Source of the DNA: Candidatus Omnitrophota bacterium
GTDB taxonomy: Bacteria; Omnitrophota; Gorgyraeia; Gorgyraeales; Gorgyraeaceae
Assembly (NCBI GenBank): GCA_030649895.1
Contig: JAUSEX010000020.1
Coordinates: 23,109 to 87,108, forward strand
DNA length: 64,000 nucleotides
Reading direction: 5' to 3'
Shown here: in pieces, positions 8,463 through 45,852 of the stretch
Layout: each line of letters begins with the position of its first letter
How positions within the stretch are numbered: position 1 is the first letter of the stretch
The notes under the pieces: generated by a model
Told to the model about the DNA's origin: nothing
Database searches by the model: none
The model's input: only the letters and a program-made list of their open reading frames with translations
Translations under genes and position numbers: made by a program

Positions 8463-8515
8463 GCTGTTCGAGCGAATCCTTAGGCCTAGCTCAGGACAGG
8501 TTTCGACTTGCTCGA
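8463..8515. repeat. REP-like element, copy 2, diverged, immediately 3' of ftsK
   Basis: GTTCGAGCGAATCCTTAGGCC...GGACAGGTTTCGACTTGCTCGAA shares the TTCGAGCGA / TTGCTCGAA arms and the GGACAGG core. Confidence 0.5.
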
Positions 8516-21468: not shown

Positions 21469-21473
21469 CCGAA

Positions 21474-21517: not shown

Positions 21518-21528
21518 TAGGTGTAAAT

Positions 21529-23411: not shown

Positions 23412-24929
23412 TTGGAGCGGTTGAAAATGCATTATCCGTCAAAACAAGAATTTGTAAAATTAGCTGAGAAAGCTAATATAATACCTGTCTATAAAGAAAT
23501 ATTGGCAGATACATTGACGCCTGTTTCCGCCTTTCAGAAAATAGGCGGAGGATATTCGTATCTGCTGGAGTCTGTCGAAGGCCAGGAGAAGATAGCAAGA
23601 TTTTCATTTATAGGCATAGAGCCTTCTCTGATATTAAAAAGCAAAGGGAATTCTATCGAGATAAATAAAAACGGCAGGGTTAAAAAATATTTTACAGACG
23701 ATCCGTTAAAAGAAATTGAGAAAGTAATGAGTTCTTTTAAGGCAGCTGAAGTAAAAGGTCTTCCGAGGTTTTCAGGAGGCATGGTGGGGTATATGGGGTA
23801 CGATATGGTGAGGTTTTTTGAAAACCTGCCTGATAAAAATCCAGATAACTTAAAGATCCCGGATTCTGTATTCATGATGGCGGATAGCCTCGTGATATTT
23901 GATCACTCTACGCATAAGGTTAAGATAGTGATAAACGCGTATCTGGCTCAGGGCTTCCCCCGGCTTCGCTCGGGACAGGCAAGGCTCAAGGCTCAAGGGA
24001 TATACGAAAAAGCGGTAGAAAAGATAGAAGAGATTATAAAGAAATTAAACAAGCCTGAGAAAAAGCAAAAGGCAAAAATAAAAAGCAAAAAGCGCAAGAT
24101 GGAATCAAACTTTACAAAAAAAGAATTCGAAGGCTTGGTTAAAAGAGCGAAGGAATACATAAGGGCCGGGGATATAATACAGGTTGTGCCGTCGCAAAGA
24201 TTTCATACAAGGCTGAACTGCGGGCCGTTTGATGTTTACCGCTCTCTCAGGTCTTTAAATCCGTCGCCTTACATGTATTATTTAAATTTCGATGAACTGC
24301 AAATCGTAGGGTCGTCTCCTGAGCTTTTAGTAAGGTGCGAGGATGGTATAGTTGAGACCAGGCCCATAGCAGGCACGAGGCCGAGAGGCAGAAGCGAAGC
24401 TGAGGATAAAAAATTAGAGGAAGAACTTTTAGCTGACGCGAAAGAAAGGGCGGAGCATGTGATGCTGGTGGATCTTGGCAGAAATGATATAGGCAGGGTC
24501 TGCAAGCCTGGCAGCGTCAAGGTAACGGATTTTATGTTTATAGAAAAGTATTCTCATGTTATGCATATTGTTAGTAACTGCAAGGGCGTTTTGGATGAGA
24601 ATAAGAATTCGTTTGATGTTTTACGGGCGTGTTTTCCGGCGGGCACCGTATCAGGCGCGCCAAAGGTCAGGGCAATGGAAATAATAGACGAGCTTGAGAA
24701 TACAAGAAGAGGTTATTACGCCGGAGCAGTGGGGTATTTCAGCTTTTCCGGGAATATGGACACATGTATAACTATAAGGACGATGCTAGTCAAAGGGAAA
24801 GATGCTTTTATCCAATCAGGCGGAGGAATAGTGGCTGACTCTATCCCGTCTAAGGAATATCAGGAGACAGTGAATAAAGCAAAAGCAATGGTTAAGGCAA
24901 TTGAGATAGCCGAGAAAGGATTAGATTAA
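23412..24929 (+). CDS. trpE: Anthranilate synthase component I
   Basis: 505-aa chorismate-binding enzyme (SPELLVR...IAGTRPRG...GAVGYF). Carries an in-frame insert of a roughly 50-nt GC-rich repeat at 23948-23999. Confidence 0.9.
23948..23999. repeat. Roughly 50-nt GC-rich mosaic element with GCTCAAG heptamer repeats, in frame in trpE
   Basis: CAGGGCTTCCCCCGGCTTCGCTCGGGACAGGCAAGGCTCAAGGCTCAAGGG is near-identical to 45481-45534 in nadC. Translates [15 protein letters not shown]. Confidence 0.75.
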
Positions 24930-24930
24930 G

Positions 24931-25000
24931 CTTCTCGACTAAGCCGCTTCGTGGCTTCGCTTGAAGAGTGTTGTTCGAGCGAACGAAGCGAGTCGAGAAC
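24931..25000. repeat. REP-like element, copy 3, in the trpE-trpG spacer
   Basis: CTTCTCGACTAAGCCGCTTCGTGGCTTCGCTTGAAGAGTGTTGTTCGAGCGAACGAAGCGAGTCGAGAAC has outer stem TTCTCGACT/AGTCGAGAA and inner arms. Confidence 0.65.
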
Positions 25001-25013
25001 ATAGGAGCAAAAT

Positions 25014-25577
25014 ATGATTTTAATGATAGATAATTATGATTCATTTACCTATAACCTGGTTCAGTATTTGTCTGAGCTGGGAGAAAAACTGGTTGTGCGT
25101 AGGAATGATAAAATAGGTATCGAAGAAATAAAAAAACTGAAGCCTGATCACATAGTGATCTCTCCTGGGCCTGGGAGGCCGAGCGAGGCTGGTATTTCAG
25201 AAGAGGTCATAGGAGAATTCGGGCCAAGGATTCCGCTTCTGGGAGTTTGCCTGGGGCATCAGGGCATAGGAGAGGTTTTTGGCGGCAAGGTTATTCGCGC
25301 GGAGAACCTTATGCACGGCAAAACATCGATGATATACCACAATAGCGACTCGTTGTTTAAAGATGTCTCCAATCCATTCGAGGCAACCAGGTACCACTCA
25401 TTGATAGTTGAAAAAAAATCACTGCCTGATATTTTTCAGGTCATAGCTTGGACAAAGGCTGATGAGATAATGGGTATTAAACATAAAAAATTTCCGATAT
25501 GGGGAGTGCAGTTTCATCCTGAGTCAATATTAACTAAGGAAGGAAAGCAGCTGTTGAAGAATTTTATTAACATATGA
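25014..25577 (+). CDS. trpG: Anthranilate synthase component II (glutamine amidotransferase)
   Basis: MILMIDNYDSFTYNLVQYL...GVCLGHQ...FHPES is the classic TrpG/PabA triad. Confidence 0.9.
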   Translation: MILMIDNYDSFTYNLVQYLSELGEKLVVRRNDKIGIEEIKKLKPDHIVISPGPGRPSEAGISEEVIGEFGPRIPLLGVCLGHQGIGEVFGGKVIRAENLMHGKTSMIYHNSDSLFKDVSNPFEATRYHSLIVEKKSLPDIFQVIAWTKADEIMGIKHKKFPIWGVQFHPESILTKEGKQLLKNFINI

Positions 25578-25636
25578 TACATTTTTCGTTCGGCGATCGG
25601 AACATTATTCTAATCGCCTAATGGAATTAGATCAAA

Positions 25637-26701
25637 ATGGAGATTGTTATGATTCGTGAAGCTATAGGCAAAATAGTAGATGGGTTGGATCTAACGCGAG
25701 ACGAGATGATTTCCTGCATGAATGAAATCATGACTGGCATTGCAACCCAGGCCCAGATAGGAAGTTTTATTACAGCCCTTAGGCTTAAGGGAGAGACAGT
25801 GGAAGAGATTACAGGCGCTGCTATTGTGATGCGGGAAAAAGCTACCAGGATAAACATTGCCGCTAACCTGATAGGCGCAAGCAAGGATGATATAGCTATA
25901 GACAGGGGGACGATTATAGACACATGCGGGACAGGCGGAAGCGGGGTCAATACCTTTAATATTTCAACAACGGTTGCTTTCGTAGTCAGCGGCGCAGGTT
26001 TGAGAGTGGCTAAACATGGAAATCGGGGCGTTTCAAGTGTATGTGGAAGCGCGGATGTCATCAAGGCACTAGGCGTAAACATAGAAATCCCGGCTGAAAA
26101 GGTAAGAGAATGTATAGAAAAGATAGGCATAGGATTTTTATACGCGCCTTCTTTTCATAATGCAATGAAGTTTGCGATAGGGCCCAGGAGAGAGATAGGC
26201 ATAAGGACGATATTCAATATACTCGGCCCTCTTACGAATCCTGCGAATGCCACGTGCCAGGTCCTGGGAGTATATGAAGAAGAGCTTACGGATAAGCTGG
26301 CAAATGTACTTAATAACCTGGGGACTAAAAGGGCGTTTGTTGTATATGGCATGGATGCGCTCGACGAGATAACTATAACAGGCAAAACTAAAATCAGCGA
26401 GCTAAAAAATAAAAAGGTAAAAGGGTATTACATAAAACCTCAGGACTTTGGCATGAAGAGAGCGGATCTCTTAGACATAAAAGGCGGGACTATAGAAGAG
26501 AACGCCGGTATTGTAAAAAAGGTCCTTGAGGGAGAAAAAGGCCCGAGGCAGGATGTAGTGCTGTTAAACGCGTCTGCCGCGCTTATTGCAGGCGGGATGG
26601 CAAAGGATTTTAAAGACGGGATTGAAATAGCCCGGGATTCGATTAAATTCGGCAGGGCAAAAGAGAAACTGGACAAGCTGGTAGAGCTTACAAATAAATA
26701 G
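25637..26701 (+). CDS. trpD: Anthranilate phosphoribosyltransferase
   Basis: IDTCGTGGSGVNTFNISTTVAFVVSGAG..KHGNRGVSS is the TrpD signature. Confidence 0.9.
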   Translation: MEIVMIREAIGKIVDGLDLTRDEMISCMNEIMTGIATQAQIGSFITALRLKGETVEEITGAAIVMREKATRINIAANLIGASKDDIAIDRGTIIDTCGTGGSGVNTFNISTTVAFVVSGAGLRVAKHGNRGVSSVCGSADVIKALGVNIEIPAEKVRECIEKIGIGFLYAPSFHNAMKFAIGPRREIGIRTIFNILGPLTNPANATCQVLGVYEEELTDKLANVLNNLGTKRAFVVYGMDALDEITITGKTKISELKNKKVKGYYIKPQDFGMKRADLLDIKGGTIEENAGIVKKVLEGEKGPRQDVVLLNASAALIAGGMAKDFKDGIEIARDSIKFGRAKEKLDKLVELTNK

Positions 26702-26704
26702 TTT

Positions 26705-26790
26705 GGTTCTCGACTTGGCCTTTGGCCTTGCTCGAACAATATTTTTCGAGAGGATATTTTCGATTATACATGTAAGCCTAGTCGAAAAGA
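26705..26790. repeat. REP-like element, copy 4, in the trpD-trpC spacer
   Basis: GGTTCTCGACTTGGCCTTTGGCCTTGCTCGAACAATATTTTTCGAG...GCCTAGTCGAAAAG. The track ORF 26703-26903 here is an artefact of the repeat. Confidence 0.7.
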
Positions 26791-26796
26791 CAAGAT

Positions 26797-27594
26797 ATGA
26801 AAAATTTTCTGCAGAATATAATTATATTAAAGAGAAAAGAAATAGAAGCGTTAAAATCCAAAAGGCCTATTACGGAATTCATCGATTCAAAGCGTCTCTC
26901 TAGGGGTATAAGGCCGTTCAAAGAAGCTATCTCCGGAGGGGACGGCCTGAATCTTATCGCAGAGATAAAAAAGAAATCTCCTTCTTTCGGGAGGAATTTT
27001 TTCAGAAAACTGGACATAGCAGGAATAGCCAATACCTATAAAAAAGAAGGCGCCAGCGCCATGTCGGTCTTAACGGATAAGAAGTTTTTCAGCGGGAACA
27101 TCCTGCATATAAACGAAGTGAAGCGCGCCGTAGACCTCCCTGTACTGAGAAAGGATTTTATAATAGATGAATACCAGGTTTACGAGTCCCGTTATTTCGG
27201 CGCGGACGCGATACTTTTGATCGCCAGGATCTTATCAGTGGACCAGATAAAGAGTTTTATGCTTCTCGCGAAAAAGATTAATATGGACGCCATTGTAGAG
27301 ATCCATAATGAGAATGACTTGCAGAAGGCTTTATTGGCCAGTCCGGAGATAATAGGCGTGAACAACAGAGACCTGGACACTATGGAGATATCCATAGAAA
27401 ACACCTTAAGGCTTGTTCCTAAGATTCCTAAAGAGATAGTGACGGTAAGCGAAAGCGGTATATCCAACAATGAAGACATAGAGAAAATAAAGAAAACAGG
27501 GGTAAGCGCGGTATTGATAGGCGCGGCATTTCTTGAATCAGAGGATATAGCGGGCAGGGTGCGAAAGGTGATGGGTAATGAGAGTAAGGGTTAA
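26797..27594 (+). CDS. trpC: Indole-3-glycerol phosphate synthase
   Basis: IAEIKKKSPS...LRKDFIIDEYQVYESR...NNRDL motifs of IGPS. Confidence 0.9.
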   Translation: MKNFLQNIIILKRKEIEALKSKRPITEFIDSKRLSRGIRPFKEAISGGDGLNLIAEIKKKSPSFGRNFFRKLDIAGIANTYKKEGASAMSVLTDKKFFSGNILHINEVKRAVDLPVLRKDFIIDEYQVYESRYFGADAILLIARILSVDQIKSFMLLAKKINMDAIVEIHNENDLQKALLASPEIIGVNNRDLDTMEISIENTLRLVPKIPKEIVTVSESGISNNEDIEKIKKTGVSAVLIGAAFLESEDIAGRVRKVMGNESKG

Positions 27595-28225
27595 ATTTTG
27601 CGGGATAACGTCGGTTGAAGACCGCGACAGCGCAATAAGCGCGGGCGCTGATGCGATAGGGATTGTGTTTTTTAAAGATAGCCCTCGTTTTGTGCCATTG
27701 GAAAGAGCGGAGATAATAGTAAAGGATCTGCCGCCTTTTATAAGCGCGGTAGGCGTTTTTGTTAATGAAGATTTGAGGTTTATAGAAGAATGCGTGGAGA
27801 GGTGCAGCCTGAACGCCGTGCAGATACACGGCGATGAAGACGTTCAATATTGTTTAAAGTTTAAAGGTTTAAAATTGAGAGGCGTAAAACTAATAAAGGC
27901 TATAAGAGTCAAGGATTGGGAAAGCCTGGCAGCTATAGAAGATTGCCCCGCTGACGCTTTTATATTGGACGCATATAAAAAAGGCTTGTATGGCGGCACA
28001 GGAAAAGGCTTTGATCCTTCGCTGGCTACCATAGCAAATGAATACGGGAGAAATATTATCATATCAGGCGGGTTAAACCCTGATAATGTGTATAGTATAA
28101 TAAAGGAAGCAAAGCCTTACGGAGTGGATGTTTCCTCTGGTATTGAATCCTCTCCAGGGAAGAAAAACATAGAATTAATGGAGCGGTTCACAGTAGAAGT
28201 CAGGCTCGCAGAACAAGAAATATAA
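27578..28225 (+). CDS. trpF: Phosphoribosylanthranilate isomerase
   Basis: VKFCGITSVED...VQIHGDE...SGGLNPDNV. Overlaps trpC by 17 nt. Confidence 0.85.
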   Translation: MRVRVKFCGITSVEDRDSAISAGADAIGIVFFKDSPRFVPLERAEIIVKDLPPFISAVGVFVNEDLRFIEECVERCSLNAVQIHGDEDVQYCLKFKGLKLRGVKLIKAIRVKDWESLAAIEDCPADAFILDAYKKGLYGGTGKGFDPSLATIANEYGRNIIISGGLNPDNVYSIIKEAKPYGVDVSSGIESSPGKKNIELMERFTVEVRLAEQEI

Positions 28226-28485
28226 CCTTATCTAACGCAGTATATTAATCATACCCAAAATTGCCGGAATTCCCTCGCCGCAAACATAAATAGTCATAAT
28301 ATGGAAAAACTGGCTCGGTCAGTTCCGCCATTTGCTCGCTGTAATTTCTTGCGGACTTTTGCCGAAATTTTTCTAATGCGCCTCAGACCTGCTTGACAGG
28401 ACGAGTGACCCTTCGACAAGCTCAGGGTTCTTGGTCCCGAGCAAAGCTGGGGCGTCTTTTCGTAGGCCTAGTGGTAGGAAAGACA

Positions 28486-28513
28486 ATAAGCTGACTTGAC
28501 AAACCGCATAAGA
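28486..28513 (+). promoter_or_regulatory. Sigma-70-like promoter for the downstream nine-gene operon: TTGACA, 16 nt, TATACT
   Basis: TTGACA at 28486-28491 and TATACT at 28508-28513. Lies in a 340-nt noncoding gap after trpF and about 50 nt upstream of the GTG of the HTH gene. A second TTGACA lies near 28395. Confidence 0.35.
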
Positions 28514-28563
28514 TCATTATACTTCTTTATACTGCGACTTAAAGAGATATAAAGGGGTTTAAC

Positions 28564-28758
28564 GTGACTAAAGCCAAGCAGGTAATGACGGTTAAGGAAA
28601 TAGCGGAATATCTGGGCGTGCACCCTATGACAATATACAAGTATGTCAAGGACGGCAAGATCCCTGCTTTTAAAATAGGGACGAGCTGGCGTATTAGGAG
28701 AGATTCCATAAAGAAATGGATGGATGAGAATGAATACAAAAACCAGGGAGGTGTTTAA
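28564..28758 (+). CDS. Excisionase-family helix-turn-helix DNA-binding protein (putative transcriptional regulator)
   Basis: 64-aa protein. MTVKEIAEYLGVHPMTIYKYVKDGKIPAFKIGTSWRIRRDSI matches the MerR-superfamily excisionase-type HTH. GTG start with AAGGGG Shine-Dalgarno. The stop abuts the ATG of the next gene. Confidence 0.6.
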   Translation: MTKAKQVMTVKEIAEYLGVHPMTIYKYVKDGKIPAFKIGTSWRIRRDSIKKWMDENEYKNQGGV

Positions 28759-30054
28759 ATGTTTAAGCGGGCTGCGATTGTCGCGTTTTTATCTTTTATC
28801 TTAACGGTTTTATCTTGCAGCGCTGTTTTTGCGAATGGTTTTAAGAATGACGCGCTTTTGGACACAGAAGCTACTGGTATGGCTACTTTATTTGTGGCGC
28901 AGGCAGATTCTCCTGCGGCAGTGCAGTTTAACCCAGCCGGACTTACTCAATTAAAAGGAAATCATGCAAGGGTGGGATATACCAGCGCAATCCCAAGGAA
29001 TTTCCGTACGGATACAAGCGGCAATGATCAAAGCAGCTCGCAAATAGACAATTTTTTCATACCTAGTATTTATCTTGTAAATAACTTGAAATCTGAAAAT
29101 TGGAAATTTGGTTTAGGCGTGACATCGCCTTACGGCCTTGGGACAGACTGGGCAGATGACAGTTTTGCAAGATTTCAGACCACAGAATCCAGTTTACAGG
29201 TTTTGCAGATAAACCCGACAATTGCGTATAAATATAATAATACGATTTCTCTTGGGTTTGGGATAGATTATATAATGTCAGAGACATCGAGTCATAAAAG
29301 AATAGCGGATACTACGGGTTTAGGGGATTTTCACGCAAAAGGTAACGATGATGGTTGGGGTTATAATTTAGGACTTCTTGTTAAGCCTTCGGAAAAATAT
29401 AGCATTGGGGTTGCTTATAGAAGCAGAGTAAAGCTTACCTATAAAGGCACTATTTCTATGACTAACTTGTCTAGCGGCATATACGGGTCCGGTGGTTTAG
29501 GATATTTCCCGAATGATACTTATGTAACAGGCATGGAATCCAGGCTTACCCTGCCTCAGACTCTTGCGTTAGGTTATGCGTTCAAACCGGATCAAAAATT
29601 AACAATAGAAACCGATGCCATATGGACAGATTGGTCTAGCGTACAAGAAGATTTCGCGAAATATACTGAAGAAGGAGATGCAAATCGATTAGCTGTTCTA
29701 AATGACGGTAATCCATTGGCAAAGGACTGGAATGCAACTATGTCATATGGTATAGCTGCTAAGTATCAGGCTACTGATAAATTGGTTTTAAGGTGCGGAT
29801 ATTTATATGCGGAAACACCTGTGCCTGCTGCTAATTTTGAGCCTTCCATGGTTGACATGGATATGCACTGCGTTAGCGTGGGAGCGGGATATGCTCTGAA
29901 AAAAGACCTTACTGTTGATGCTGCGTACTTCGGAGGATTTTATAAGGATAGATATATTACAAATGACATAGCCCTTTCTAGCGGTTCTGATTTAGACGGC
30001 ATGTATGAATCGTATGTAAATGTCTTTTCAGTAAGCTTCACTTATAAATATTGA
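28759..30054 (+). CDS. FadL/OMPP1/TodX-family outer-membrane transporter for hydrophobic compounds
   Basis: Signal peptide, N-terminal hatch with the NPAGL motif, amphipathic beta-strand-rich sequence, C-terminal aromatic residues ...FTYKY typical of an OM beta-barrel. Confidence 0.7.
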   Translation: MFKRAAIVAFLSFILTVLSCSAVFANGFKNDALLDTEATGMATLFVAQADSPAAVQFNPAGLTQLKGNHARVGYTSAIPRNFRTDTSGNDQSSSQIDNFFIPSIYLVNNLKSENWKFGLGVTSPYGLGTDWADDSFARFQTTESSLQVLQINPTIAYKYNNTISLGFGIDYIMSETSSHKRIADTTGLGDFHAKGNDDGWGYNLGLLVKPSEKYSIGVAYRSRVKLTYKGTISMTNLSSGIYGSGGLGYFPNDTYVTGMESRLTLPQTLALGYAFKPDQKLTIETDAIWTDWSSVQEDFAKYTEEGDANRLAVLNDGNPLAKDWNATMSYGIAAKYQATDKLVLRCGYLYAETPVPAANFEPSMVDMDMHCVSVGAGYALKKDLTVDAAYFGGFYKDRYITNDIALSSGSDLDGMYESYVNVFSVSFTYKY

Positions 30055-30064
30055 TAATAGAATA

Positions 30065-30343
30065 ATGAAAAAAGCTAAAGATCTGAAGATAGCTGAATTA
30101 TCAAAGAAGAGGGAGAGCGTCAAGAAGTTAATAGCCGAAATCGCCAGGATGGATGCAGACAAGATAGATGAGAGCGATGGCATCAGGGATGATTTAGGCA
30201 TTGACTCCCTGATGGCAGTTGAGATGCTGGCAGCGATCGAAAAGAGATTGGGCGTTGTTATGGATGAAGCAAAGGCGTTTGACATAGTGACAGTAAAGGA
30301 TCTTATAGATCTTGTAATGGAGTGGTTTAAAAACAAAAGGTAA
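30065..30343 (+). CDS. Dedicated acyl carrier protein
   Basis: 92-aa protein with phosphopantetheine attachment motif LGIDSLMAVEM. Not the housekeeping acpP context. Confidence 0.8.
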   Translation: MKKAKDLKIAELSKKRESVKKLIAEIARMDADKIDESDGIRDDLGIDSLMAVEMLAAIEKRLGVVMDEAKAFDIVTVKDLIDLVMEWFKNKR

Positions 30344-30411
30344 GATATATAAAACCGTAATTAACCGTGTAGGTTGCGCGCGACAAACCTATGCGGTTGG
30401 GGTGGTAAAAG

Positions 30412-31839: not shown

Positions 31840-31874
31840 CCGCGTTTTATATTTAACAACCAAGAGGCATTAAT

Positions 31875-35279: not shown

Positions 35280-35652
35280 TCCGGGCCGCAAGGTCCTGCT
35301 AATCGACGACGAAGAAACTTTATTAAAAAACATAGGGGAATTTTTAAAGGTCGGGGGATATTCTGTTTTTACATCTTCCAATAGTACGGATGGGCTGGAG
35401 TTGCTGAGAAACCATGGCCCTGATTTATTGCTTCTGGACCTGCATCTAAAAGAAGGGCTTACGGGCATGCAGGTCCTGAGGGCCGCAAAGATGCTGAAGC
35501 CTGATTTAAAGGTTGTTATATTGTCAGGATTCGGCGAAGAAGAGGATACGAAAAAGAGCTGTATTTCACTTGGCGCAAGCGCTTTTTTAGGAAAACCCAC
35601 GTCTCTGAGAAGCTTGTCTGAGATTATAAAGAATCTTCTGGAGGTAAAATAA
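35269..35652 (+). CDS. Stand-alone response-regulator receiver (CheY-like)
   Basis: KVLLIDDEETLL...DLLLLDLHLKEGLTGMQVL...KVVILSG with conserved D, D, T and K of REC. Overlaps the HK stop by 11 nt. Confidence 0.85.
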   Translation: MEPNPGRKVLLIDDEETLLKNIGEFLKVGGYSVFTSSNSTDGLELLRNHGPDLLLLDLHLKEGLTGMQVLRAAKMLKPDLKVVILSGFGEEEDTKKSCISLGASAFLGKPTSLRSLSEIIKNLLEVK

Positions 35653-35892
35653 ATGCAAGGAAAATTAAGAGAAGAATTTCATGGTATAAACAATTTACTT
35701 AACAAAATAACTACTCAGGCAGGCATGGCTAAGTATCATCTGGAAGAAAAAGGGTTTGATCTTGCAAAGATCGAAGAGGAGAAAGAGCGGCTCATAAAAG
35801 TCCTGGATAGCATGGAAGAGAACGCCATGAATATAGGGGAGTTGTTAAGGAACCTGCGCAAAGGCATCGAAACAGGGAGATCCTGGGAATGA
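35653..35892 (+). CDS. Small helical protein, possible Hpt-like phosphotransfer protein
   Basis: 79-aa predicted all-helical protein with one His in EEFHGINNLLNKITTQAGMA (HxxxN..L..K...G, Hpt-like). Start abuts the REC stop, and its stop overlaps the next REC gene by 4 nt. Assignment is inferential. Confidence 0.3.
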   Translation: MQGKLREEFHGINNLLNKITTQAGMAKYHLEEKGFDLAKIEEEKERLIKVLDSMEENAMNIGELLRNLRKGIETGRSWE

Positions 35893-37835: not shown

Positions 37836-37844
37836 GAGATACTT

Positions 37845-39053
37845 ATGAAATATATTGTTCTCGTTGGAGACGGAATGGGCGACAGGCCCATTGAAGATCT
37901 TGGCGGCAAGACCGTGCTTGAGGCGGCAAAGATTCCTAATATGAATTTTATAGCTGAGAATGGCAAGGTGGGGCTTACAAACATGATCCCGTCCAGGATG
38001 TTGCCTGCAAGCGACGTGGCGAATCTTTCTATACTCGGATATAACCCTAAAAAATACTACACGGGACGCGGTCCGCTGGAAGCGGCGAATATGGGCATAG
38101 ACCTGAAGGAGGACGAGGTGGCGTTCAGGTGTAACCTTGTGACTATTTCAGGCGAGAGAATGGCGGATTACAGCGCAGGCCACATATCAAATGAGGAAGC
38201 AAAGTCTATAATAAAGGAGCTGAATTTCAAGCTGGGCTCTGATGATATAAAATTTTATCCCGGCGTAAGCTACAGGCATCTTATGATTTTTAAATGCAAA
38301 GATAAAAGTGTCCAGGAAGGGTTTGTGAATGCAAAGTGCACTCCGCCTCACGATATAGCGGGAAAGATAATAAACAGGTTCCTTCCCGCGAGGACTCCTC
38401 AGGCAGAGATACTAAAAAGATTGATGGATGAATCTAAAAAGATTTTAGCAGACCATGATGTGAACAGGGTAAGGCTTGATTTAAAAGAAAATCCCGCTAA
38501 CATGATATGGTTGTGGGGCCAGGGCGTAAGGTCTTTTATGCCGAAATTTTCAAAGCTTTATCACGTGGAAGGTTCTATTATTTCAGCGGTTGACCTTATA
38601 AAAGGCATAGGGAGGATTATCGGGCTGGATGTTATAGACGTGCCAGGGGCTACCGGATATTACGATACGAATTATTTAGGCAAGGCAGAGTATGCCATTG
38701 ATTCTCTGAAACATAAGGATTTTGTGTTTGTTCATGTGGAGGCCCCTGACGAGGCTGGCCATAACGGGGATCTGAGAGAAAAGATTTACAGCGTAGAAAA
38801 ATTTGATAAGTTCGTAGTGGGGACCATACTGAGCCATTTCAAGGCCTCTAAAGAAGAATTCAGGATAATGGTTTTATATGACCACGCTACGCCGGTAGCG
38901 TTAAAAACCCATTCCCGGGACCATGTTTGTTTCGCTATGTACGGTACTGATATTGAACAAGGGGCAATAAAGCATTTCAACGAAAAAGAAGCCCGCCTGA
39001 CAAAATTCCGCATAGATAAGGGCCACGAGTTAATGGAATTCTTCATAAAATAA
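37845..39053 (+). CDS. apgM: Cofactor-independent phosphoglycerate mutase, archaeal type
   Basis: MKYIVLVGDGMGDRP...AKIPNMNF...HVEAPDEAGHNGD metalloenzyme motifs of ApgM/PhosphMutase. Confidence 0.8.
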   Translation: MKYIVLVGDGMGDRPIEDLGGKTVLEAAKIPNMNFIAENGKVGLTNMIPSRMLPASDVANLSILGYNPKKYYTGRGPLEAANMGIDLKEDEVAFRCNLVTISGERMADYSAGHISNEEAKSIIKELNFKLGSDDIKFYPGVSYRHLMIFKCKDKSVQEGFVNAKCTPPHDIAGKIINRFLPARTPQAEILKRLMDESKKILADHDVNRVRLDLKENPANMIWLWGQGVRSFMPKFSKLYHVEGSIISAVDLIKGIGRIIGLDVIDVPGATGYYDTNYLGKAEYAIDSLKHKDFVFVHVEAPDEAGHNGDLREKIYSVEKFDKFVVGTILSHFKASKEEFRIMVLYDHATPVALKTHSRDHVCFAMYGTDIEQGAIKHFNEKEARLTKFRIDKGHELMEFFIK

Positions 39054-39104
39054 CCTGATTTTACAATTTGCGCCAGCGCTGTTCGTAAAGCCAGGATACT
39101 GTCT

Positions 39105-39170
39105 GAAAATTTTGCTGTCCGCTCAAATGCGCCTAAGGCCCAAGCCGGCTTGAGCGAATGAACGTATTTT
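39105..39170. repeat. REP-like element, copy 5, diverged, upstream of lysC
   Basis: GGCTTGAGCGAATGAACGTATTTTCGAAAGCC has inner arms like the other copies. Confidence 0.4.
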
Positions 39171-39280
39171 CGAAAGCCTGCCGGAACTGGCTATTACGTA
39201 ATATGTTATCTGGCTATTCAAATGGCAATTTCAAATATTTTAATAGATTATTTTTGGCATATGTGGTAATATTTATCGAT

Positions 39281-40504
39281 ATGGGAAAACGTTTGATTGT
39301 TCAAAAATATGGCGGCAGTTCTGTAGCGAATACAGACAGGATAAAAAGTGTAGCGAACCGCATCGCAAAATACAAAAAGCAAGGCTATAATGTGGTGGTG
39401 ATAGTTTCCGCTTTAGGCGATACTACCGACGAATTGTTGGAACTTGCGGGACAGATAACGGATAAGCCAAGCGATAGAGAATTAGATATGCTCATATCTA
39501 CTGGCGAACAGGTGTCTGTGGCGCTTCTGGCAATGGCGCTACATAAGATAGGGGTTGATGCAATATCTTTTACAGGCCCTCAGGTAGGCATAATAACGGA
39601 CCGCACTCACACAAAGGCTAAGATCCTGAAGATAAGCGCTGACAGGATCAAGGGGCAGATCAATAAGGGCAGGGTTGTTATAGTGGCGGGCTTTCAGGGT
39701 ATGAACGCTGATCAGGAGATCACTACTCTTGGCAGGGGCGGTTCGGACCTTACCGCTGTCGCTATTGCTACAACGCTAAATGCTGACATGTGCGAGATAT
39801 ATACTGACGTTGAAGGTGTCTATACAGCTGATCCCAGGATCGTAAAAGACGCGAAAAAACTTTCCGTTATCAGTTATGAAGAGATGCTTGAGCTGGCTTC
39901 TCTGGGCGCGCAGGTTATGCAGGCCAGGTCCATGGAGGTCGCGAAAAAATATTCAGTATCGCTGCATATACGGTCAAGTTTTACGAATGAAGAAGGGACG
40001 ATTATTTCAAAGGAGGTTAAGGCGATGGAAGATGTTCTTGTGAGCGGGGTGACTGCAAATAAAGGCGAGGCAAAGGTGACTATCTGCGATGTCCCTGACA
40101 GGCCCGGAATAGCAGCGAAAATATTCACGGATATAGCAAGGCATGATATAAACGTTGATATGATAATTCAGAATATAAGCAGAAAAGGTTACACGGATCT
40201 CTCTTTTACGGTACCCGTGGCTGAGCTTAATAAGGCGAAAGATATGATGTCTAAAATAGTGAGATCCGTGAAGGCGAAAGGCGTGGTGTATAATAATGAG
40301 ATTGCCAAGGTTTCTATAGTCGGCGTAGGCATGAAGACGCATTCCGGGGTCGCGGCGAAGATGTTCGGGGCACTGGCCTCAAAAAAGATAAACATAGACA
40401 TGATTTCAACCTCTGAAATCAAGATATCGTGCGTGATAAATAAAAGATATGCGGATAAAGCGGTGATCGCGCTGCATAAGGCGTTTGGATTGGGGAAGAA
40501 ATAG
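39281..40504 (+). CDS. lysC: Aspartate kinase (monofunctional, two ACT domains)
   Basis: LIVQKYGGSSV...VVVIVSALGDTTDEL and tandem C-terminal ACT domains. The ORF track starts 41 codons earlier in the same frame (39158); I call ATG 39281. Confidence 0.9.
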   Translation: MGKRLIVQKYGGSSVANTDRIKSVANRIAKYKKQGYNVVVIVSALGDTTDELLELAGQITDKPSDRELDMLISTGEQVSVALLAMALHKIGVDAISFTGPQVGIITDRTHTKAKILKISADRIKGQINKGRVVIVAGFQGMNADQEITTLGRGGSDLTAVAIATTLNADMCEIYTDVEGVYTADPRIVKDAKKLSVISYEEMLELASLGAQVMQARSMEVAKKYSVSLHIRSSFTNEEGTIISKEVKAMEDVLVSGVTANKGEAKVTICDVPDRPGIAAKIFTDIARHDINVDMIIQNISRKGYTDLSFTVPVAELNKAKDMMSKIVRSVKAKGVVYNNEIAKVSIVGVGMKTHSGVAAKMFGALASKKINIDMISTSEIKISCVINKRYADKAVIALHKAFGLGKK

Positions 40505-40506
40505 GA

Positions 40507-40600
40507 TTCGCTTCTTGACTTGGCCGATTTGTGGCCTCGCTCGAAGAATAATATTGTTCGAGCGGACACCAATGTTTTGTTTATAAGCCCAGTCGAAAAC
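40507..40600. repeat. REP-like element, copy 6, in the lysC-cimA spacer
   Basis: TTCGCTTCTTGACTTGGCCGATTTGTGGCCTCGCTCGAAGAATAATATTGTTCGAGCGGACACC...GCCCAGTCGAAAAC. Confidence 0.65.
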
Positions 40601-40617
40601 TATTAGAGGAAAATAAG

Positions 40618-42189
40618 ATGCGAGAAATCAAGATTTACGATACTACATTGAGGGATGGGTCGCAGGGAGAAGGCATCTCTTTCTCTGTAATGGACAAGAT
40701 AAAGATCGCTAAGAGATTAGATGATTTCGGGGTTCATTATATAGAAGGAGGATGGCCGGGCTCTAACCCGAAGGATATGGAATTCTTCAGGCAGGCAAAA
40801 AAGCTTAAATTTAAGAATTCCGAGATTGTAGCATTCGGCAGCACTAGGCGCCCAAAGATTAGCCCTCAAGACGACGAAAACCTTCACGCGCTTATAAAGT
40901 CAGGCGCGAGTTCGGTTGCAATTTTTGGCAAGACGTGGGATATGCATGTAATAGACGTCCTCAAGGTTTCTTTGCAGGAAAATCTTAAAATGATCAAGGA
41001 TACCGTAGAATTTCTGAAGTCTAAAAAGCTGTACGTGTTTTACGACGCAGAGCACTTTTTTGACGGGTATCTGAAAAATAAAGATTATAGCCTGGAAACC
41101 CTGCGTTCCGCTGTAAGCGCAGGATGCGATGCAGTGGTTTTGTGCGACACGAACGGCGGGATGCTCACAAACGAATTAGCTGTTATTGTCAGGACGATTT
41201 CCAGCGAATGCCACGATGTCAACCTTGGTATCCACACTCATAATGATGGCGGATTAGCAGTGGCGAATACTATAGTTGCGGTTGAAGCAGGCGCAAATAT
41301 TGTTCAGGGGACTGTAAATGGTTACGGCGAAAGGTGCGGTAATGCAGACCTGTGCGCTATTATTCCAAATCTTCAGCTAAAGCTGGGATATAAATGCGTC
41401 TCTGAATCCAGGCTTAAAGAATTAACCGAGGTGTCCAGGTATGTGAGCGAGATCTCAAACATGAAACCTCAGGATAATCAGCCTTTTACGGGCAGGAGCG
41501 CTTTTGCCCATAAAGGAGGGGTTCATATCAATGCGGTCATGAAAAATCCCGTGTCTTATGAGCATATGGCGCCTGAAAAAATCGGTAACCACAGAAGGAT
41601 CCTGGTTTCTGAATTATCCGGCAAGACCAGTATTATCCTAAGGGCGAAAGAGATGGAGCTGGATCTTACAAAGGATGATCCAAAGACAAAGAAAATATTA
41701 AGGTTGGTCCAATTAATGGAAAACCAGGGCTATCATTTTGAAGCAGCTGACGGGTCTTTTGAGCTCTTGATGAAAAAGGCATTAAAGAAATATAAGCCAT
41801 TTTTTACTCTTGAGGGATTTAAGGTGAGCATTGAAAAAAGAGAGGACGATACTCTCATCTCAGAAGCTATTATAAAGCTTAACGTAAATAAAAAAGAAGA
41901 ACATACTGCGGCTTTGGGCGACGGGCCTGTAAACGCTTTGGATAACGCGTTGCGCAAAGCCCTTGCGAAGTTTTATCCTACGCTTTCCAAGATGCACTTG
42001 TCTGATTTCAAAGTAAGGGTGCTGGATGAAAAGGCAGGCACTGCCGCTAAAGTAAGAGTCCTTATCCAATCCCAGGATGAAAATAGTTCCTGGGGCACTG
42101 TAGGAGTTTCTGAAAATATTATAGAAGCTAGCTGGCAGGCCCTTGTGGATAGCGTGGAATACAAGCTATTAAAAGATAAGGTCAGATAG
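40618..42189 (+). CDS. cimA: (R)-citramalate synthase, CimA-type (LeuA family)
   Basis: IYDTTLRDGSQGEGISFS...IEGGWPGSNPKD, HTHND..G.A.AN, and LeuA-dimer C-terminal domain. The lysC-cimA adjacency recalls Geobacter. Confidence 0.65.
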   Translation: MREIKIYDTTLRDGSQGEGISFSVMDKIKIAKRLDDFGVHYIEGGWPGSNPKDMEFFRQAKKLKFKNSEIVAFGSTRRPKISPQDDENLHALIKSGASSVAIFGKTWDMHVIDVLKVSLQENLKMIKDTVEFLKSKKLYVFYDAEHFFDGYLKNKDYSLETLRSAVSAGCDAVVLCDTNGGMLTNELAVIVRTISSECHDVNLGIHTHNDGGLAVANTIVAVEAGANIVQGTVNGYGERCGNADLCAIIPNLQLKLGYKCVSESRLKELTEVSRYVSEISNMKPQDNQPFTGRSAFAHKGGVHINAVMKNPVSYEHMAPEKIGNHRRILVSELSGKTSIILRAKEMELDLTKDDPKTKKILRLVQLMENQGYHFEAADGSFELLMKKALKKYKPFFTLEGFKVSIEKREDDTLISEAIIKLNVNKKEEHTAALGDGPVNALDNALRKALAKFYPTLSKMHLSDFKVRVLDEKAGTAAKVRVLIQSQDENSSWGTVGVSENIIEASWQALVDSVEYKLLKDKVR

Positions 42190-42196
42190 TCTCTCC

Positions 42197-44971
42197 ATGA
42201 AAGACATACCTCCAAGATATAATCCAAAAGATTACGAAGAATCCATTTATTCTAAATGGGAAAAGAGCGGTTTTTTTCATCAGGAGCCCGACCTTTCGAA
42301 AAAACCTTTTACGATAGTGATTCCTCCTCCCAATGTTACGGGTATTCTTCATATGGGGCACGCGTTAAATAATACAATACAGGATATCCTGGTAAGATGG
42401 AAGAGGATGCAGGGGTTTGCAAGTCTCTGGGTGCCTGGCACTGACCACGCAGGCATAGCCACCCAAAACGTAGTGGAGAAGAGCCTGGCCAGGAAAGGCG
42501 TAACAAGGCAATTGTTAGGCAGAGAAAAGTTCGTAGACGAGGTCTGGAAATGGCGGGAGCAGTATGGCGATACCATTATAATGCAGCTTAAAAGGCTGGG
42601 CGCGTCATGCGATTGGGAAAGAACCCGCTTTACTATGGATAAAGGCCTTTCGGAAGCCGTGCTTGAAGCGTTTGTCCGGCTTTACAATAAAGGGTTGATT
42701 TACAGGGGAAATTATATAATCAACTGGTGCCCCAGATGCCAGACAGCCCTTTCTGATGAAGAAGCGCCGCATCAGGACGTGGAAGGGAAACTGTATTACA
42801 TATTGTATCCATTCAAGGAGGCTCAAGGCGATACCCTTCAGCCTTCAGCCTTCAGCCTTCAGCCCGGTATAGTTGTGGCGACTACAAGGCCCGAGACCAT
42901 GCTTGGCGATGTGGCTGTGGCAGTAAACCCGAAAGACAGGAGATATAAAAAACTGATAGGCGCAAAACTTATGCTGCCTATCGTGGAAAAAGAAATAGAA
43001 ATTATTGCGGATGATTTTGTGGATAAAAAATTTGGCACAGGCGCTGTAAAGGTTACGCCTGCGCACGATCCCAATGATTTTGAAATGGCAAAGCGGCACG
43101 GGCTTGAACCTGTCAGGATTATGAGGCCCGATGGAAAAATGAATGAAAACGCCTCTAGGTTTAACGGAATGGACAGGTTTGAGGCGAGAAAATTAATAGT
43201 AGCTGAACTTGAAGAAAAGAAGCTGTTAATAAAAATAGAAAAGCATGATCACGCAGTAGGGCATTGTTACAGGTGCAACACCGTGATAGAGCCGTATCTG
43301 TCTTTGCAATGGTTTGTTAAGATGAAGCCATTGGCGGAACCTGCGATAGAGGCCGTAAAAAGCGGAAAGATTAAATTTTATCCAAAGAGATGGACAAAGG
43401 TTTATCTTAACTGGATGGAGAATATAAGGGACTGGTGCGTTTCAAGGCAGATATGGTGGGGGCACCGTTTGCCTGTTTACTATTGCATGGATTGCGCGAA
43501 ACAGGCAAGTGAACTCAAGGCTGATAGAGATTCTCTTGAGCCCGCAGCCTGCAGCCTGCAGCCAAATATCGGCGTTATAGTATCTAAGGTTAAACCCGAT
43601 AAATGTCCTGTCTGCGGCGGAATAGATCTGAGGCAGGATGAAGATGTGCTGGATACGTGGTTTTCGTCCTGGCTCTGGCCGTTCTCAACGCTTGGGTGGC
43701 CTGAAGAAACAAAAGACCTGGAATATTTTTATCCGACATCCGCGCTGGTGACAGCGCCTGAGATATTATTTTTTTGGGTAGCCAGAATGATAATGTCCGG
43801 AATAGAATTTAAAAAAGATATACCTTTCAGCGATGTTTATATTCATGGAACAGTGAGAGATGCGGCAGGAAAGAAAATGTCCAAATCTCTGGGGAACATA
43901 ATAGACCCGCTGGAAATAATAGACGGATTTAGCGCAGATGCTTTAAGATTCAGCATTATATCTATAACATCTGCCGGGCAGGATGTATTTTTATCTAAAG
44001 AAAAATTCGAGATAGGCAGAAATTTTGCAAATAAGATATGGAATGCGTCGCGGTTCGTGCTGATGAACGTTGCGGCGGATGACTTCTCGACTCGGCCTGC
44101 GGCCTCGCTTGGAGAATATAGCGCCCCAGGGACGAGTCTGGAGCTATCCATCGCTGATAAGTGGATTTTAAGCAGATTAAGCAGGACAATAGACGCGACG
44201 ACAAAGGCGTTGAAGATTTACAGGTTTAATGAAGCAGAGGGCCTGGTTTATGATTTTTTCTGGCACGATTTTTGCGACTGGTATGTGGAGATGGTTAAGC
44301 CGCAGATTATGACTCAGGGCTCCGGACCAGAGGACGGGGGAGCGAAAGATGTTTTGATACATGTGCTGGAGGATTCGCTGAAGTTGCTACATCCTTTTAT
44401 GCCGTTCGTGACAGAAGCTATCTGGCAGAATATCAAGGAAAGAGAAAGTATAATGGTTTCAAAATGGCCTGAGCCTGAAAAGCGCTACGTAAATAAACAG
44501 ATAGAATCCGATATAGAGGTGATGAAGGAGGCTATTGTGAATATCAGGAATATACGTTCCGATATGAACATACCCTATTCAAAAAAGCTTACAGTGAATA
44601 TTGTCCCGTTGAAGCCTGGGGTTGAAGCTATCCTGTCTGGCAGCGTGAAATATATCAAGAGTTTGGCGCAGCTTGAGAATCTGATAATAGACGCTAAACT
44701 GAAGAAACCAAAAAGTTCCCTGAGCGCAGTTACTGAGAATTTCAATATGTTTGTACCTCTGGAGGGCGTTATAGATATAGAAGCAGAAAAGGCCAGGCTT
44801 TTTAAGAAGCAAGACGCGTTAAAACAGCAGCTTTTATTGACTGGAAAAAGGCTTAAAGATAAGAATTTCATGGGCAATGCGCCTGATAATGTAATAAACG
44901 CGGAGCAGGAGAAGGCTGAAAAAATCAAAGAGCAGATAGGCAGGCTGGGGAAAACAATCAAGGATTTATGA
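42197..44971 (+). CDS. valS: Valine--tRNA ligase
   Basis: PPPNVTGILHMGHA, ATTRPETMLGD, KMSKSLGN, and C-terminal coiled coil. Contains two in-frame heptamer-repeat segments (42834-42861 and 43544-43563). Confidence 0.97.
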   Translation: MKDIPPRYNPKDYEESIYSKWEKSGFFHQEPDLSKKPFTIVIPPPNVTGILHMGHALNNTIQDILVRWKRMQGFASLWVPGTDHAGIATQNVVEKSLARKGVTRQLLGREKFVDEVWKWREQYGDTIIMQLKRLGASCDWERTRFTMDKGLSEAVLEAFVRLYNKGLIYRGNYIINWCPRCQTALSDEEAPHQDVEGKLYYILYPFKEAQGDTLQPSAFSLQPGIVVATTRPETMLGDVAVAVNPKDRRYKKLIGAKLMLPIVEKEIEIIADDFVDKKFGTGAVKVTPAHDPNDFEMAKRHGLEPVRIMRPDGKMNENASRFNGMDRFEARKLIVAELEEKKLLIKIEKHDHAVGHCYRCNTVIEPYLSLQWFVKMKPLAEPAIEAVKSGKIKFYPKRWTKVYLNWMENIRDWCVSRQIWWGHRLPVYYCMDCAKQASELKADRDSLEPAACSLQPNIGVIVSKVKPDKCPVCGGIDLRQDEDVLDTWFSSWLWPFSTLGWPEETKDLEYFYPTSALVTAPEILFFWVARMIMSGIEFKKDIPFSDVYIHGTVRDAAGKKMSKSLGNIIDPLEIIDGFSADALRFSIISITSAGQDVFLSKEKFEIGRNFANKIWNASRFVLMNVAADDFSTRPAASLGEYSAPGTSLELSIADKWILSRLSRTIDATTKALKIYRFNEAEGLVYDFFWHDFCDWYVEMVKPQIMTQGSGPEDGGAKDVLIHVLEDSLKLLHPFMPFVTEAIWQNIKERESIMVSKWPEPEKRYVNKQIESDIEVMKEAIVNIRNIRSDMNIPYSKKLTVNIVPLKPGVEAILSGSVKYIKSLAQLENLIIDAKLKKPKSSLSAVTENFNMFVPLEGVIDIEAEKARLFKKQDALKQQLLLTGKRLKDKNFMGNAPDNVINAEQEKAEKIKEQIGRLGKTIKDL
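42834..42861. repeat. Heptanucleotide tandem repeat (CCTTCAG-type, x4, one imperfect) inside valS. It is the reverse complement of CTGAAGG.
   Basis: CCCTTCA GCCTTCA GCCTTCA GCCTTCA read directly. Preceded by GGCTCAAGG. Confidence 0.9.
43544..43563. repeat. Heptanucleotide tandem repeat (GCAGCCT, about x3) inside valS, preceded by CTCAAGGCTGA
   Basis: CCCGCAGCCT GCAGCCT GCAGCC read directly. Confidence 0.85.
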
Positions 44972-45852
44972 AGCTAACAAAAGAAAAAATATTTCCGATA
45001 ATCATAAGCGCCCTGAAAGAAGATATCGGTTCGGGCGATATTACGAGTTCTGTTGTGTTTGAAAAAGACGTCAGCTTATTAGCGCATATTGTGGCGCAAG
45101 AAAGGTGCGTTTTAGCCGGCATAGATGTTGCCAGATGGACCTTTGACGCAGTGGATGAAAAAATAGCGTTTACAGCTTTATGCAAAGACGGGGACAACGT
45201 TAAAAAAGGCAAAAGGATTATATCGGTAAAAGGTTCCGCCAGGAGCGTATTGACAGCCGAGAGGACGGTTTTAAATTTTCTCAGTCACCTGTCCGGCGTG
45301 GCTACGATTACAAATATATTCGCAAGAGAAGTCAAAGGCACGGATGCAGAAATATATGACACAAGAAAAACTACCCCTGGGCTCAGGGAACTGGAGAAGT
45401 ATGCCGTTGCAATCGGCGGCGGATTTAGTTACAGGATTGGATTATGGGATGGGATTATGATAAAGGATAATCACTTGTCGGGCTTAAGGCTCAAGGCTTC
45501 CCTCGACTTCGCCCGGGACAGGCAAGGCTCGAAGGTAAAAGCCATAAAGGCGGCTGTAGAAGCATTTAAAAATAAAGGATATAAGAATATAGAGGTTGAG
45601 GTAGAAACGTTAGCAGAATTTCAAGAAGCCCTGGAAGCAGGCGCGGATATTATAATGCTGGATAATATGGAGCCGGAAGATATAAAAAAGGCCGAAAAAC
45701 TCAGAAAGGGCTCAAATGTAATTTTAGAAGCTTCCGGCGGAATCAGCACGGAGAACATAAAAAAGATCGCTAAAACAGGGGTAGATAGAATTTCCATAGG
45801 CAGGATTACCCACTCAGCTCCTTCGATAGATTTTTCATTAGAAATAGCATAG
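44968..45852 (+). CDS. nadC: Nicotinate-nucleotide (quinolinate) pyrophosphorylase
   Basis: QRPRT type II motifs: TRKTTPGLR, MIKDNH, LDNM. Carries an in-frame 45-54-nt GC-rich element after IKDNH (45481-45534). Confidence 0.9.
   Translation: MKLTKEKIFPIIISALKEDIGSGDITSSVVFEKDVSLLAHIVAQERCVLAGIDVARWTFDAVDEKIAFTALCKDGDNVKKGKRIISVKGSARSVLTAERTVLNFLSHLSGVATITNIFAREVKGTDAEIYDTRKTTPGLRELEKYAVAIGGGFSYRIGLWDGIMIKDNHLSGLRLKASLDFARDRQGSKVKAIKAAVEAFKNKGYKNIEVEVETLAEFQEALEAGADIIMLDNMEPEDIKKAEKLRKGSNVILEASGGISTENIKKIAKTGVDRISIGRITHSAPSIDFSLEIA
45481..45534. repeat. Same mosaic element, in frame in nadC
   Basis: GGCTTAAGGCTCAAGGCTTCCCTCGACTTCGCCCGGGACAGGCAAGGCTCGAAGG. Inserted between the conserved NadC motifs IKDNH and GS..KA. 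Confidence 0.75.

Follow-up and report, generated by a model that had tools for sequence, protein, structure and literature searches.

Two housekeeping genes of a Candidatus Omnitrophota bacterium, trpE and nadC, contain nearly the same short GC-rich stretch in frame, which raises the question of what kind of DNA this is and how it came to lie in both genes. The Omnitrophota DNA examined was a 64-kb stretch of one genome (contig JAUSEX010000020.1; hereafter, the window), with an average G+C content of ca. 42%. A preliminary description of this window, made from the sequence alone, proposed a mosaic element of roughly 50 nt that behaves like the Rickettsia palindromic elements (RPE). Our analysis suggests a tiny, apparently undescribed mobile element: the two sites are probably copies of a 24-nt non-autonomous selfish mini-repeat, which belongs to a cross-phylum family and was inserted into pre-existing heptamer arrays.

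The 24-nt module in trpE and nadC

A repeat search of the window aligned positions 23945-23996 with 45488-45539 at 85% identity over 52 nt, ungapped; no such pair would be expected by chance. The degenerate 24-nt core pattern TCCCYCGRCTTCGCYCGGGACARG matched 23956-23979 and 45499-45522 only, even with three mismatches allowed, and gave 0 matches in 100 dinucleotide shuffles of the window. The cores contain 75% and 71% G+C, compared with ca. 42% in the window, and both open reading frames (ORFs) stay open despite the module. The near-identity, the GC richness and the retained reading frames noted in the preliminary description were thus confirmed. The module in the window reads TCCCyCGrCTTCGCyCGGGACAGG, and the features of the two sites are as follows (TRF, Tandem Repeats Finder).

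23412..24929, + strand: trpE, anthranilate synthase component I, host gene 1 (NCBIfam TIGR00564, 608 bits)
23945..23955, + strand: left remnant of the GGCTCAA array in trpE, GGCTCAGGGCT
23956..23979, + strand: 24-nt module copy 1 in trpE, TCCCCCGGCTTCGCTCGGGACAGG (pattern match with 0 expected by chance)
23980..23999, + strand: right part of the heptamer array in trpE, CAAGGCTCAAGGCTCAAGGG (TRF, period 7 with 100% matches)
44968..45852, + strand: nadC, quinolinate phosphoribosyltransferase, host gene 2 (NCBIfam TIGR00078, 292 bits)
45481..45498, + strand: left part of the heptamer array in nadC, GGCTTAAGGCTCAAGGCT (aligns with the unbroken array of L122)
45499..45522, + strand: 24-nt module copy 2 in nadC, TCCCTCGACTTCGCCCGGGACAGG (pattern match)
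45523..45535, + strand: right part of the heptamer array in nadC, CAAGGCTCGAAGG (L122 alignment)

Relatives supplied an empty site for each gene. In trpE of L121 (from Hainich groundwater; P0123, product 87% identical), GCTCAAGGCT is followed directly by CAAGGCTCAAGGCTCAAGGG, and the window adds exactly copy 1 at this junction; removal of 23956-23979 restores a continuous array of ca. four units, as in L121. Likewise, nadC of L122 (P0064) runs from GGCTCAAGGCTCAAGGCT straight into CAAGGCTCAAGG, and the window adds exactly copy 2 between them. Both inserts are 24 nt long, show no target duplication and have boundaries that cannot be shifted, and the insertion point in both genes is GGCT^CAAG, the same position of the heptamer. 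The 52-nt similarity is composed of the 24-nt module and a GGCTCAA array that was already present in both genes.

These empty sites bear directly on the proposal of a single RPE-like palindromic mosaic of ca. 50 nt, in which the flanks and the GC-rich core transpose as one unit. The whole 52 nt does align at 85% identity, and the array remnants are similar in length across sites (left, 11-18 nt; right, 12-20 nt), as such a unit would predict. However, orthologues have the array but not the core at these very codons, which largely refutes the proposal, and the heptamer-derived peptides in these loops across Omnitrophota argue that the arrays predate the core. Other phyla carry the core alone, exactly 24 nt, within unrelated flanks, and folding of the module with its flanks (66-76-nt regions) was not significant (z -1.5 to +1.0). 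We therefore regard a moving 50-nt unit as very improbable, and the inserted unit as 24 nt long. The peptide of 15-17 residues originally ascribed to the insertion corresponds to array plus module, of which the module accounts for 8 aa.

The same inserts were found in separate assemblies, namely P0121 and P0122 for TrpE and P0001 for NadC. All close homologues of the two proteins came from Candidatus Omnitrophota; the module was carried only by these 99-100% identical relatives, whereas TrpE relatives at 87% and 82% and NadC relatives at 66-78% had the array without it. Because the module is confined to such near-identical relatives, parsimony points to a recent insertion.

In TrpE, the module changes QG-S-RLKAQG to a 17-residue form with a net gain of 8 aa and reads FPRLRSGQ; in NadC, it encodes S178-R185, SLDFARDR. 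The two copies are read in different frames, which confines their similarity to the nucleotide level; a protein-level motif was rejected on the same ground. With its eight codons and no stop in any of six possible frames, the module remains an open in-frame insert.

Orthologue alignments (120 proteins each for NadC and TrpE) placed the extra residues in variable loops. According to the preliminary description, the NadC insert follows the conserved IKDNH motif at a point where homologues have only a few residues. The extra residues do follow IKDNH, and the shortest Omnitrophota orthologues have 3-4 residues there, but most orthologues carry a heptamer-derived stretch of 7-10 residues (e.g., GSRLKAQGS and MRVKGEGLR) and a few have larger inserts. 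The same pattern was observed after VNAY in TrpE, where the heptamer units differ by lineage (e.g., GQGTRDKGQG and RTEDRGQKTEDRGQKTE). The expectation that the extra residues are lineage-specific was accordingly borne out for the 24-nt core, with its exact empty sites, but not for the heptamer flanks, which are present in orthologues.

The inserts lie at loops that are absent from orthologues and from solved structures. The NadC structures 1x1o and 3tqv lack the module-encoded segment, and the alignment with Mycobacterium tuberculosis TrpE (7bvd) has a gap of exactly 8 residues at the module. An AlphaFold2 model of NadC had a mean pLDDT of 85 but values of < 50 at residues 177-186, the region of the octapeptide, which is predicted to form a disordered loop. 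The module insert is probably close to neutral.

A third, diverged copy was found in the window.

8477..8500, + strand: diverged third module, TCCTTAGGCCTAGCTCAGGACAGG, intergenic after the ftsK stop (6 mismatches to the consensus)

It has the same 3' block as the module (GCTCRGGACAGG) and lies between the inverted arms TTCGAGC and GCTCGAA. It was the sole additional match at ≤ 7 mismatches, whereas shuffled windows gave 0-1 matches (mean 0.1).

Copies in other Omnitrophota and across bacterial phyla

Metagenomes were scanned with a heptamer dimer followed by the core at any phase. Four more copies were found in related Omnitrophota, in a gltB linker, in the PurS-PurL linker of purL and in an ABC ATPase (two copies, 14 nt apart), all at AAGGCT^...^CAAGGCTC. 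Including the window copies in trpE and nadC, one heptamer phase was observed in all six copies; given the first copy, five more at the same phase would have a probability of ca. (1/7)^5 under random phase.

TrpE has a second insertion-prone site, which is empty in this genome.

24060..24093, + strand: (AAAAAGC)n-type array in trpE (TRF, period 7)

In other Omnitrophota, this site contains one, two or three modules, corresponding to 8, 16 or 24 aa (24, 48 or 72 nt), as seen in the orthologues P0140, P0159, P0143 and P0163. The insert reads SLDFARDK in some Omnitrophota according to the orthologue alignment, and the DNA was inspected in L123 and L108. In trpE of L123 (~1000-1075), the 72-nt form is made up of three modules, nested after module position 13 with alternating orientation, and folds into a perfect 25-bp hairpin (-30 kcal/mol, z = -8.8). 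Diverged versions of this site (IFLDRARDKK and LCLGSRRDKK) reflect vertical inheritance and decay.

Two further Omnitrophota metagenome-assembled genomes (MAGs) showed unusual arrangements. At a contig start (L090:1-130), four repeats of the module's left 15 nt (CCCCTCGACTTCGCT) precede seven repeats of its right 9 nt (CGGGACAGG), an arrangement that could be a contig-end assembly effect or a real expansion of half-modules. In MAG020 (L082, ~4492), a module lies in the loop of a GTAG-tagged hairpin, GTAGGAGCCGCC...GGCCGCTCCTAC, resembling repetitive extragenic palindromes (REP); classical REP-type hairpins and the module thus co-occur in some Omnitrophota.

The author of the preliminary description was not aware of such insertions having been described for this kind of genome. 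The module is not confined to it: a search with a 21-nt core pattern, CYCGRCTTCGCYCGGGACARG, in which each GTDB species was represented by one genome, gave near-identical copies from at least 18 phylum-level groups, cultured Sphingomonas among them. At least 120 loci were found, compared with ca. 4 expected by chance at uniform composition and at most ca. 30 if all genomes had 65% GC, and the GC content of the loci ranged from 36% to 73%. Among the matches listed, Acidobacteriota accounted for ca. 34, Planctomycetota for ca. 20, Alphaproteobacteria and Chloroflexota for ca. 10 each and Omnitrophota for 9; Bacteroidota, CPR groups, Nitrospinota and about ten more phyla were also represented. 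Viral contigs yielded 6 module matches among 2.9 million, and phage carriage is thus not prominent.

A logo of 121 copies revealed a conserved block of exactly 24 nt with the consensus YCCCTCGRCTTCGCTCGGGACARG. Positions 2-3, which lie outside the search pattern, are C in 97-98% of copies, and the flanks are random or unrelated apart from C at +1 in 69% and T at -1 in 34%. Copies lie between inverted repeats of ≥ 7 bp in 17% of cases compared with 1.9% of controls; these repeats are often genome-specific REP-like hairpins, and some copies are in tandem with a 24-nt period. Genome-specific subfamilies, in which the module has its own hairpin flanks, were found at L005/L070/L097 and at L006/L020/L048.

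Within genes, in-frame copies interrupt the Pfam-confirmed domains ALAD, TsaD, PEPcase, HATPase_c, P-type ATPase hydrolase and T2SSE, and one copy is situated close to the N-terminus of the LeuRS catalytic domain. Together, the copies use all six frames (SLDFARD, PSTSLGT, PRLRSGQ, VPSEVEG, LSRAKSR and CPERSRG). A third filled and empty pair came from a pure culture: plasmid traD of Sphingomonas sp. NBWT7 carries CCCCTCGACTTCGCTCGGGACAGG, and precisely these 24 nt are missing from the S. aerolata traD orthologue, again without a duplication.

Most module carriers are metagenome-assembled, which would be compatible with assembly chimeras, contamination or a coincidence of GC-rich k-mers, and a few matches in genomes of 65-73% GC without the CC prefix (e.g., L055 and L101) may indeed be due to chance. 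However, the inserts are common to independent assemblies, and the carriers include isolates (Blastomonas, such as AAP53, Sphingomonas and Enterovirga), a single-cell genome and closed long-read chromosomes (e.g., OY763326 and OZ244799). The copies also diverge by point mutation, 0 matches were expected from shuffles, and positions outside the pattern are conserved. An artefact is thus already refuted for the window copies and most of the family, and has a negligible chance of explaining the finding as a whole.

The very strong sequence conservation across phyla would also be expected of an element that hosts select for its function, such as a binding site for a conserved protein or a hairpin modulating transcription, translation or mRNA stability. 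Copies are often situated at hairpin tips and near the 3' ends of genes, and the complementary strand of the G8 variant reads GCGAAGC, a motif whose DNA mini-hairpin is reported to be exceptionally stable and to resist nucleases (PMC13037366). Such stability is missed by nearest-neighbour folding. On the other hand, the module occurs in both orientations, six frames and unrelated genes and linkers, the copies at the second TrpE site decay by point mutation in orthologues, and function leaves exact copies at new sites unexplained. An Rfam scan of 16 module loci at gathering thresholds returned two unrelated tRNAs only and nothing at the modules. We consider a host function of this kind, whether as a protein-binding site or an RNA hairpin, to be unlikely.

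The in-frame heptamer arrays

The arrays into which the module was inserted form a layer of their own. Exact arrays of ≥ 2.5 copies numbered four at period 7 in the window, compared with 0 in 30 shuffles, and none was found at the other periods between 6 and 12. All four are inside genes and in frame (ftsK, trpE and valS twice), and their units form a single family, which comprises GGCTCAA and, in reverse complement, AGCCTTC and AGCCTGC. Three heptamers make up 21 nt and encode GSRLKAQ. The arrays outside trpE are as follows.

6848..6876, + strand: uninterrupted array GCTCAAG x4.1 in ftsK, a potential target without a module
42835..42864, + strand: array CCTTCAG x4.3 in valS (TRF)
43539..43563, + strand: array AGCCTGC x3.6 in valS, within a 17-residue insertion relative to 1gax

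The first valS array (42835-42864) has as its unit the reverse complement of AAGGCTG, which differs from the trpE/nadC unit by a single mismatch; this array is an in-frame insertion relative to Thermus thermophilus ValRS. In addition, hisH contains a degenerate array of the GGCTCAA unit family at 21227-21262. Other Omnitrophota have arrays of different heptamers at the orthologous loops. A rule of one heptamer per Omnitrophota genome was considered and rejected, as TrpE and NadC peptides from the same contig had no obvious common unit.

Fragments at the pdxJ stop and in intergenic repeats had initially been assigned to the same element as the trpE and nadC stretches. They proved to be heptamer arrays or other repeat families rather than the module: the pdxJ stop (57794-57816) is the heptamer array GGTTGAA GGCTCAG GGTTGAA without the GC-rich core. 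The intergenic repeats include at least two REP-like families, neither of which contains the 24-nt module. One, at 2705-2753, 24957-24983 and 26702-26750, combines TTGCTCGAA...TTCGAGCGA hairpins with TTGGCCT heptamers, whereas the other, at 51995-52170, 59108-59173, 59435-59479 and 59729-59812, is a nested-hairpin family of ca. 80 nt with TTCGCTTCGCTC at its centre.

Because heptamer-derived peptides fill these loops across Omnitrophota, the arrays are older than the core, which represents a younger layer. Across phyla, exact period-7 arrays adjoin just 2 of the 121 module copies, and the association with arrays is mainly an Omnitrophota feature.

Heptameric tandem repeats are over-represented in bacteria, with examples such as the STRR of cyanobacteria, GGGAATC of Xanthomonas and TAACTGA of Beggiatoaceae, and those published lie mostly between genes, with under-representation in coding sequence (PMC4692102; PMC4679880). 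The flanking layer described here resembles them in its head-to-tail arrays, in which period 7 exceeds other periods. It differs in that all four exact arrays are in frame inside housekeeping genes and in that the arrays serve as landing sites for the 24-nt module.

Mode of spread and relation to known repeat families

The alignments show a clean 24-nt insertion, without duplication, into pre-existing in-frame GGCTCAA arrays in the variable loops of TrpE and NadC, and growth in 24-nt quanta was seen at the second TrpE site. The module would belong to a selfish mini-repeat family, with intact copies in many bacterial phyla that occupy genes and spacers as well as the tips of hairpins specific to a genome, and would be able to nest into itself in 24-nt steps. 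New sites would be created by a trans-acting activity, most likely one using transiently single-stranded or looped DNA. Within Omnitrophota, the module probably spreads from array to array, always at GGCT^CAAG, likely by homology-guided copying (gene conversion or template switching). Such copying is proposed in view of the 11-20 nt of homology that the array offers to the left and right of the module, and it would fix the phase automatically. Alternatively, the phase could reflect a T^C preference, as this is the only such step in the heptamer and it agrees with the weak flank preference. Tentatively, the family might be a pan-bacterial "nano-element", the smallest known self-propagating insert, which would move in a non-classical way and add octapeptide loops to core proteins. 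A possible route would be a single-stranded oligonucleotide or hairpin of defined length, inserted into loops or arrays by a widespread replication or repair activity.

Several points weigh against a selfish mini-repeat, in addition to the small chance of a host function discussed above. All-against-all BLAST of 2567 ORFs from 126 module loci identified no mobilising enzyme; the families recurring near copies were only ubiquitous ones (ABC ATPases, OmpR regulators, ECF sigma factors and SDRs). Lineage-specific transposases fit poorly with a module that is near-identical from phylum to phylum, and a source template for it was not found. Nearest-neighbour folding of the solo 24-mer gave only -1 to -2 kcal/mol (z 0.1 to 0.9). 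Orientation relative to GC skew was 67 to 44 (p = 0.04), which was not robust at higher skew thresholds, and this weak bias therefore leaves strict strand-specific single-strand transposition unsupported. The fixed phase could result from a target preference, from gene conversion or from a slightly larger moving unit. Furthermore, the preference for insertion over precise deletion rests on parsimony rather than on a rooted tree, and the copy count in this genome refers to the 64-kb window.

The identity of the 24 nt and its sharp ends in very distant phyla, the lack of target duplication and the failure to see an associated transposase in the 126 loci would suit a different origin, in which the copies are repair patches templated by a conserved master RNA or gene and do not constitute a self-propagating family. 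Nevertheless, no master was found, and the Rfam scan of 16 loci gave nothing beyond the two tRNAs. The genome-specific subfamilies with their own hairpin flanks also speak against patches, and nested and tandem growth in steps of 24 nt fits copy-to-copy spread better. We consider templated patches highly unlikely and retain the selfish mini-repeat as the probable explanation.

RPE are described as palindromic repeats of ca. 100-150 bp that form Rickettsia-specific families with one conserved peptide per family, at least as outlined in the review of this work (Ogata et al. 2000, reviewed in PMC10969869). The resemblance drawn in the preliminary description held insofar as the module is a tolerated, selfish, non-autonomous repeat that lies in frame in unrelated housekeeping genes and also in spacers. 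In-frame insertion into unrelated ORFs at structurally tolerant positions was found, and the module, like RPE, adds an extra peptide at fold-compatible positions; RPE are translated, and translation of the module would be expected from its open frames. The resemblance failed for length and palindromic structure. Compared with RPE as described, the module is exactly 24 nt (three empty-site alignments), forms no significant palindrome by itself, is read in each of the six frames and is nearly unchanged across phyla, and its host here belongs to Omnitrophota rather than Rickettsiales.

REP and repetitive units derived from them (REPIN), including the intragenic GTAG- and CGTC-tagged REPs, are GC-rich stem-loops of 20-40 bp, mostly located downstream of genes and sometimes inside ORFs of known proteins; they occur in several phyla, and some families have no known transposase (Di Nocera et al. 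2013, PMC3733652). The module is similarly a short GC-rich repeat found in several phyla and sometimes within ORFs, and its 24 nt fall into this length range. However, neither strand of its consensus begins or ends with GTAG or CGTC, and although the reverse strand has TGTC two bases in, it lacks the stem of 8-9 bp with A/T first pairs of the CGTC REPs. REP stems span 5-13 bp; a stem of ca. 5 bp (CYCGR/YCGGG) can be drawn for the module but is no more stable than in shuffled sequence. None of the module peptides appears among the intragenic REPs listed in that paper (PMC3733652). REP families are normally lineage-specific in sequence, whereas the module is cross-phylum, and, with respect to RAYT (Y1 transposase) genes, no transposase family recurs in the 126 module loci.

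Miniature inverted-repeat transposable elements, or MITEs (e.g., Correia, ERIC and Nezha), carry inverted repeats at their termini, are flanked by target-site duplications and measure 50-400 bp or more (PMC10969869). The module shares with them the nature of a small non-autonomous repeat able to form in-frame fusions, but TCCC... at one end and ...CAGG at the other do not form an inverted repeat, and no target-site duplication was found at trpE, nadC or Sphingomonas traD.

With regard to the insertion sequences IS200/IS605, the module shows no duplication and a weak flank preference, and its known targets are GGCT^CAAG and CACC^TTTG. These HUH elements insert without duplication, 3' of a fixed tetra- or pentanucleotide, and show a strong replication-orientation bias. 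Very short GC-rich units in AT-richer coding sequence also occur in yeast mitochondria, as mobile GC clusters and byp-type GC-rich hairpin inserts, which are tolerated within genes; both belong to eukaryotic organelles, and byps are skipped by the ribosome rather than translated. We know of no sequence relationship between the yeast units and the module, nor of any cross-phylum spread of the former.

A concept-based literature search returned known RPE, REP and MITE work only and nothing relevant on Omnitrophota tandem repeats. Searches with DNA 15-mers and the six encoded peptides found no relevant paper in a literature set excluding most subscription journals, the sole peptide match being an unrelated Arabidopsis peptide. 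Taken together, the module family is best placed as a new variant of REP/RPE-like repeats, distinguished by its 24-nt length, its cross-phylum range and its position on in-frame heptamer arrays.

The window also contains other repeats. In alaS (16397-19006), positions 17126-17185 form a near-perfect in-frame palindrome of 60 nt composed of two hairpin units, TCCCGTTC-tcc-GAACGGGA, at a site where Aquifex aeolicus AlaRS has 10 fewer residues; a sister doublet of this hairpin is intergenic, in the spacer after hisH (21470-21525). The alaS palindrome is a true REP-doublet or RPE-like in-frame element, unrelated in sequence to the 24-nt module. At the 3' end of uvrB (45998-48013), an inverted repeat of 35 nt (47957-48035; 80% complementary, 9-nt spacer) spans the stop codon, and its left arm encodes the last ca. 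18 residues of UvrB, past the end of the family model. Nearly all long ORFs in the window are on the + strand and the GC skew is positive throughout (+0.09 to +0.28), suggesting a strongly co-oriented leading-strand segment.

If the selfish mini-repeat is real, a sequence too small to encode anything would spread within and between very distant phyla, and the idea developed for RPE, that selfish DNA shapes proteins, would extend from one intracellular genus to much of the bacterial domain. Eight codons without a stop in any frame would let such a sequence enter proteins harmlessly. It would provide a concrete source of lineage-specific loop insertions in enzymes, and it would explain recurrent "hypothetical" peptides in metagenome annotations, such as PSTSLGTG, LVPSEVEG, SLDFARDK and CPERSRG. 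The link with in-frame heptamer arrays in Omnitrophota adds a second layer. The filled and empty pair in plasmids of cultured Sphingomonas makes the question experimentally approachable.

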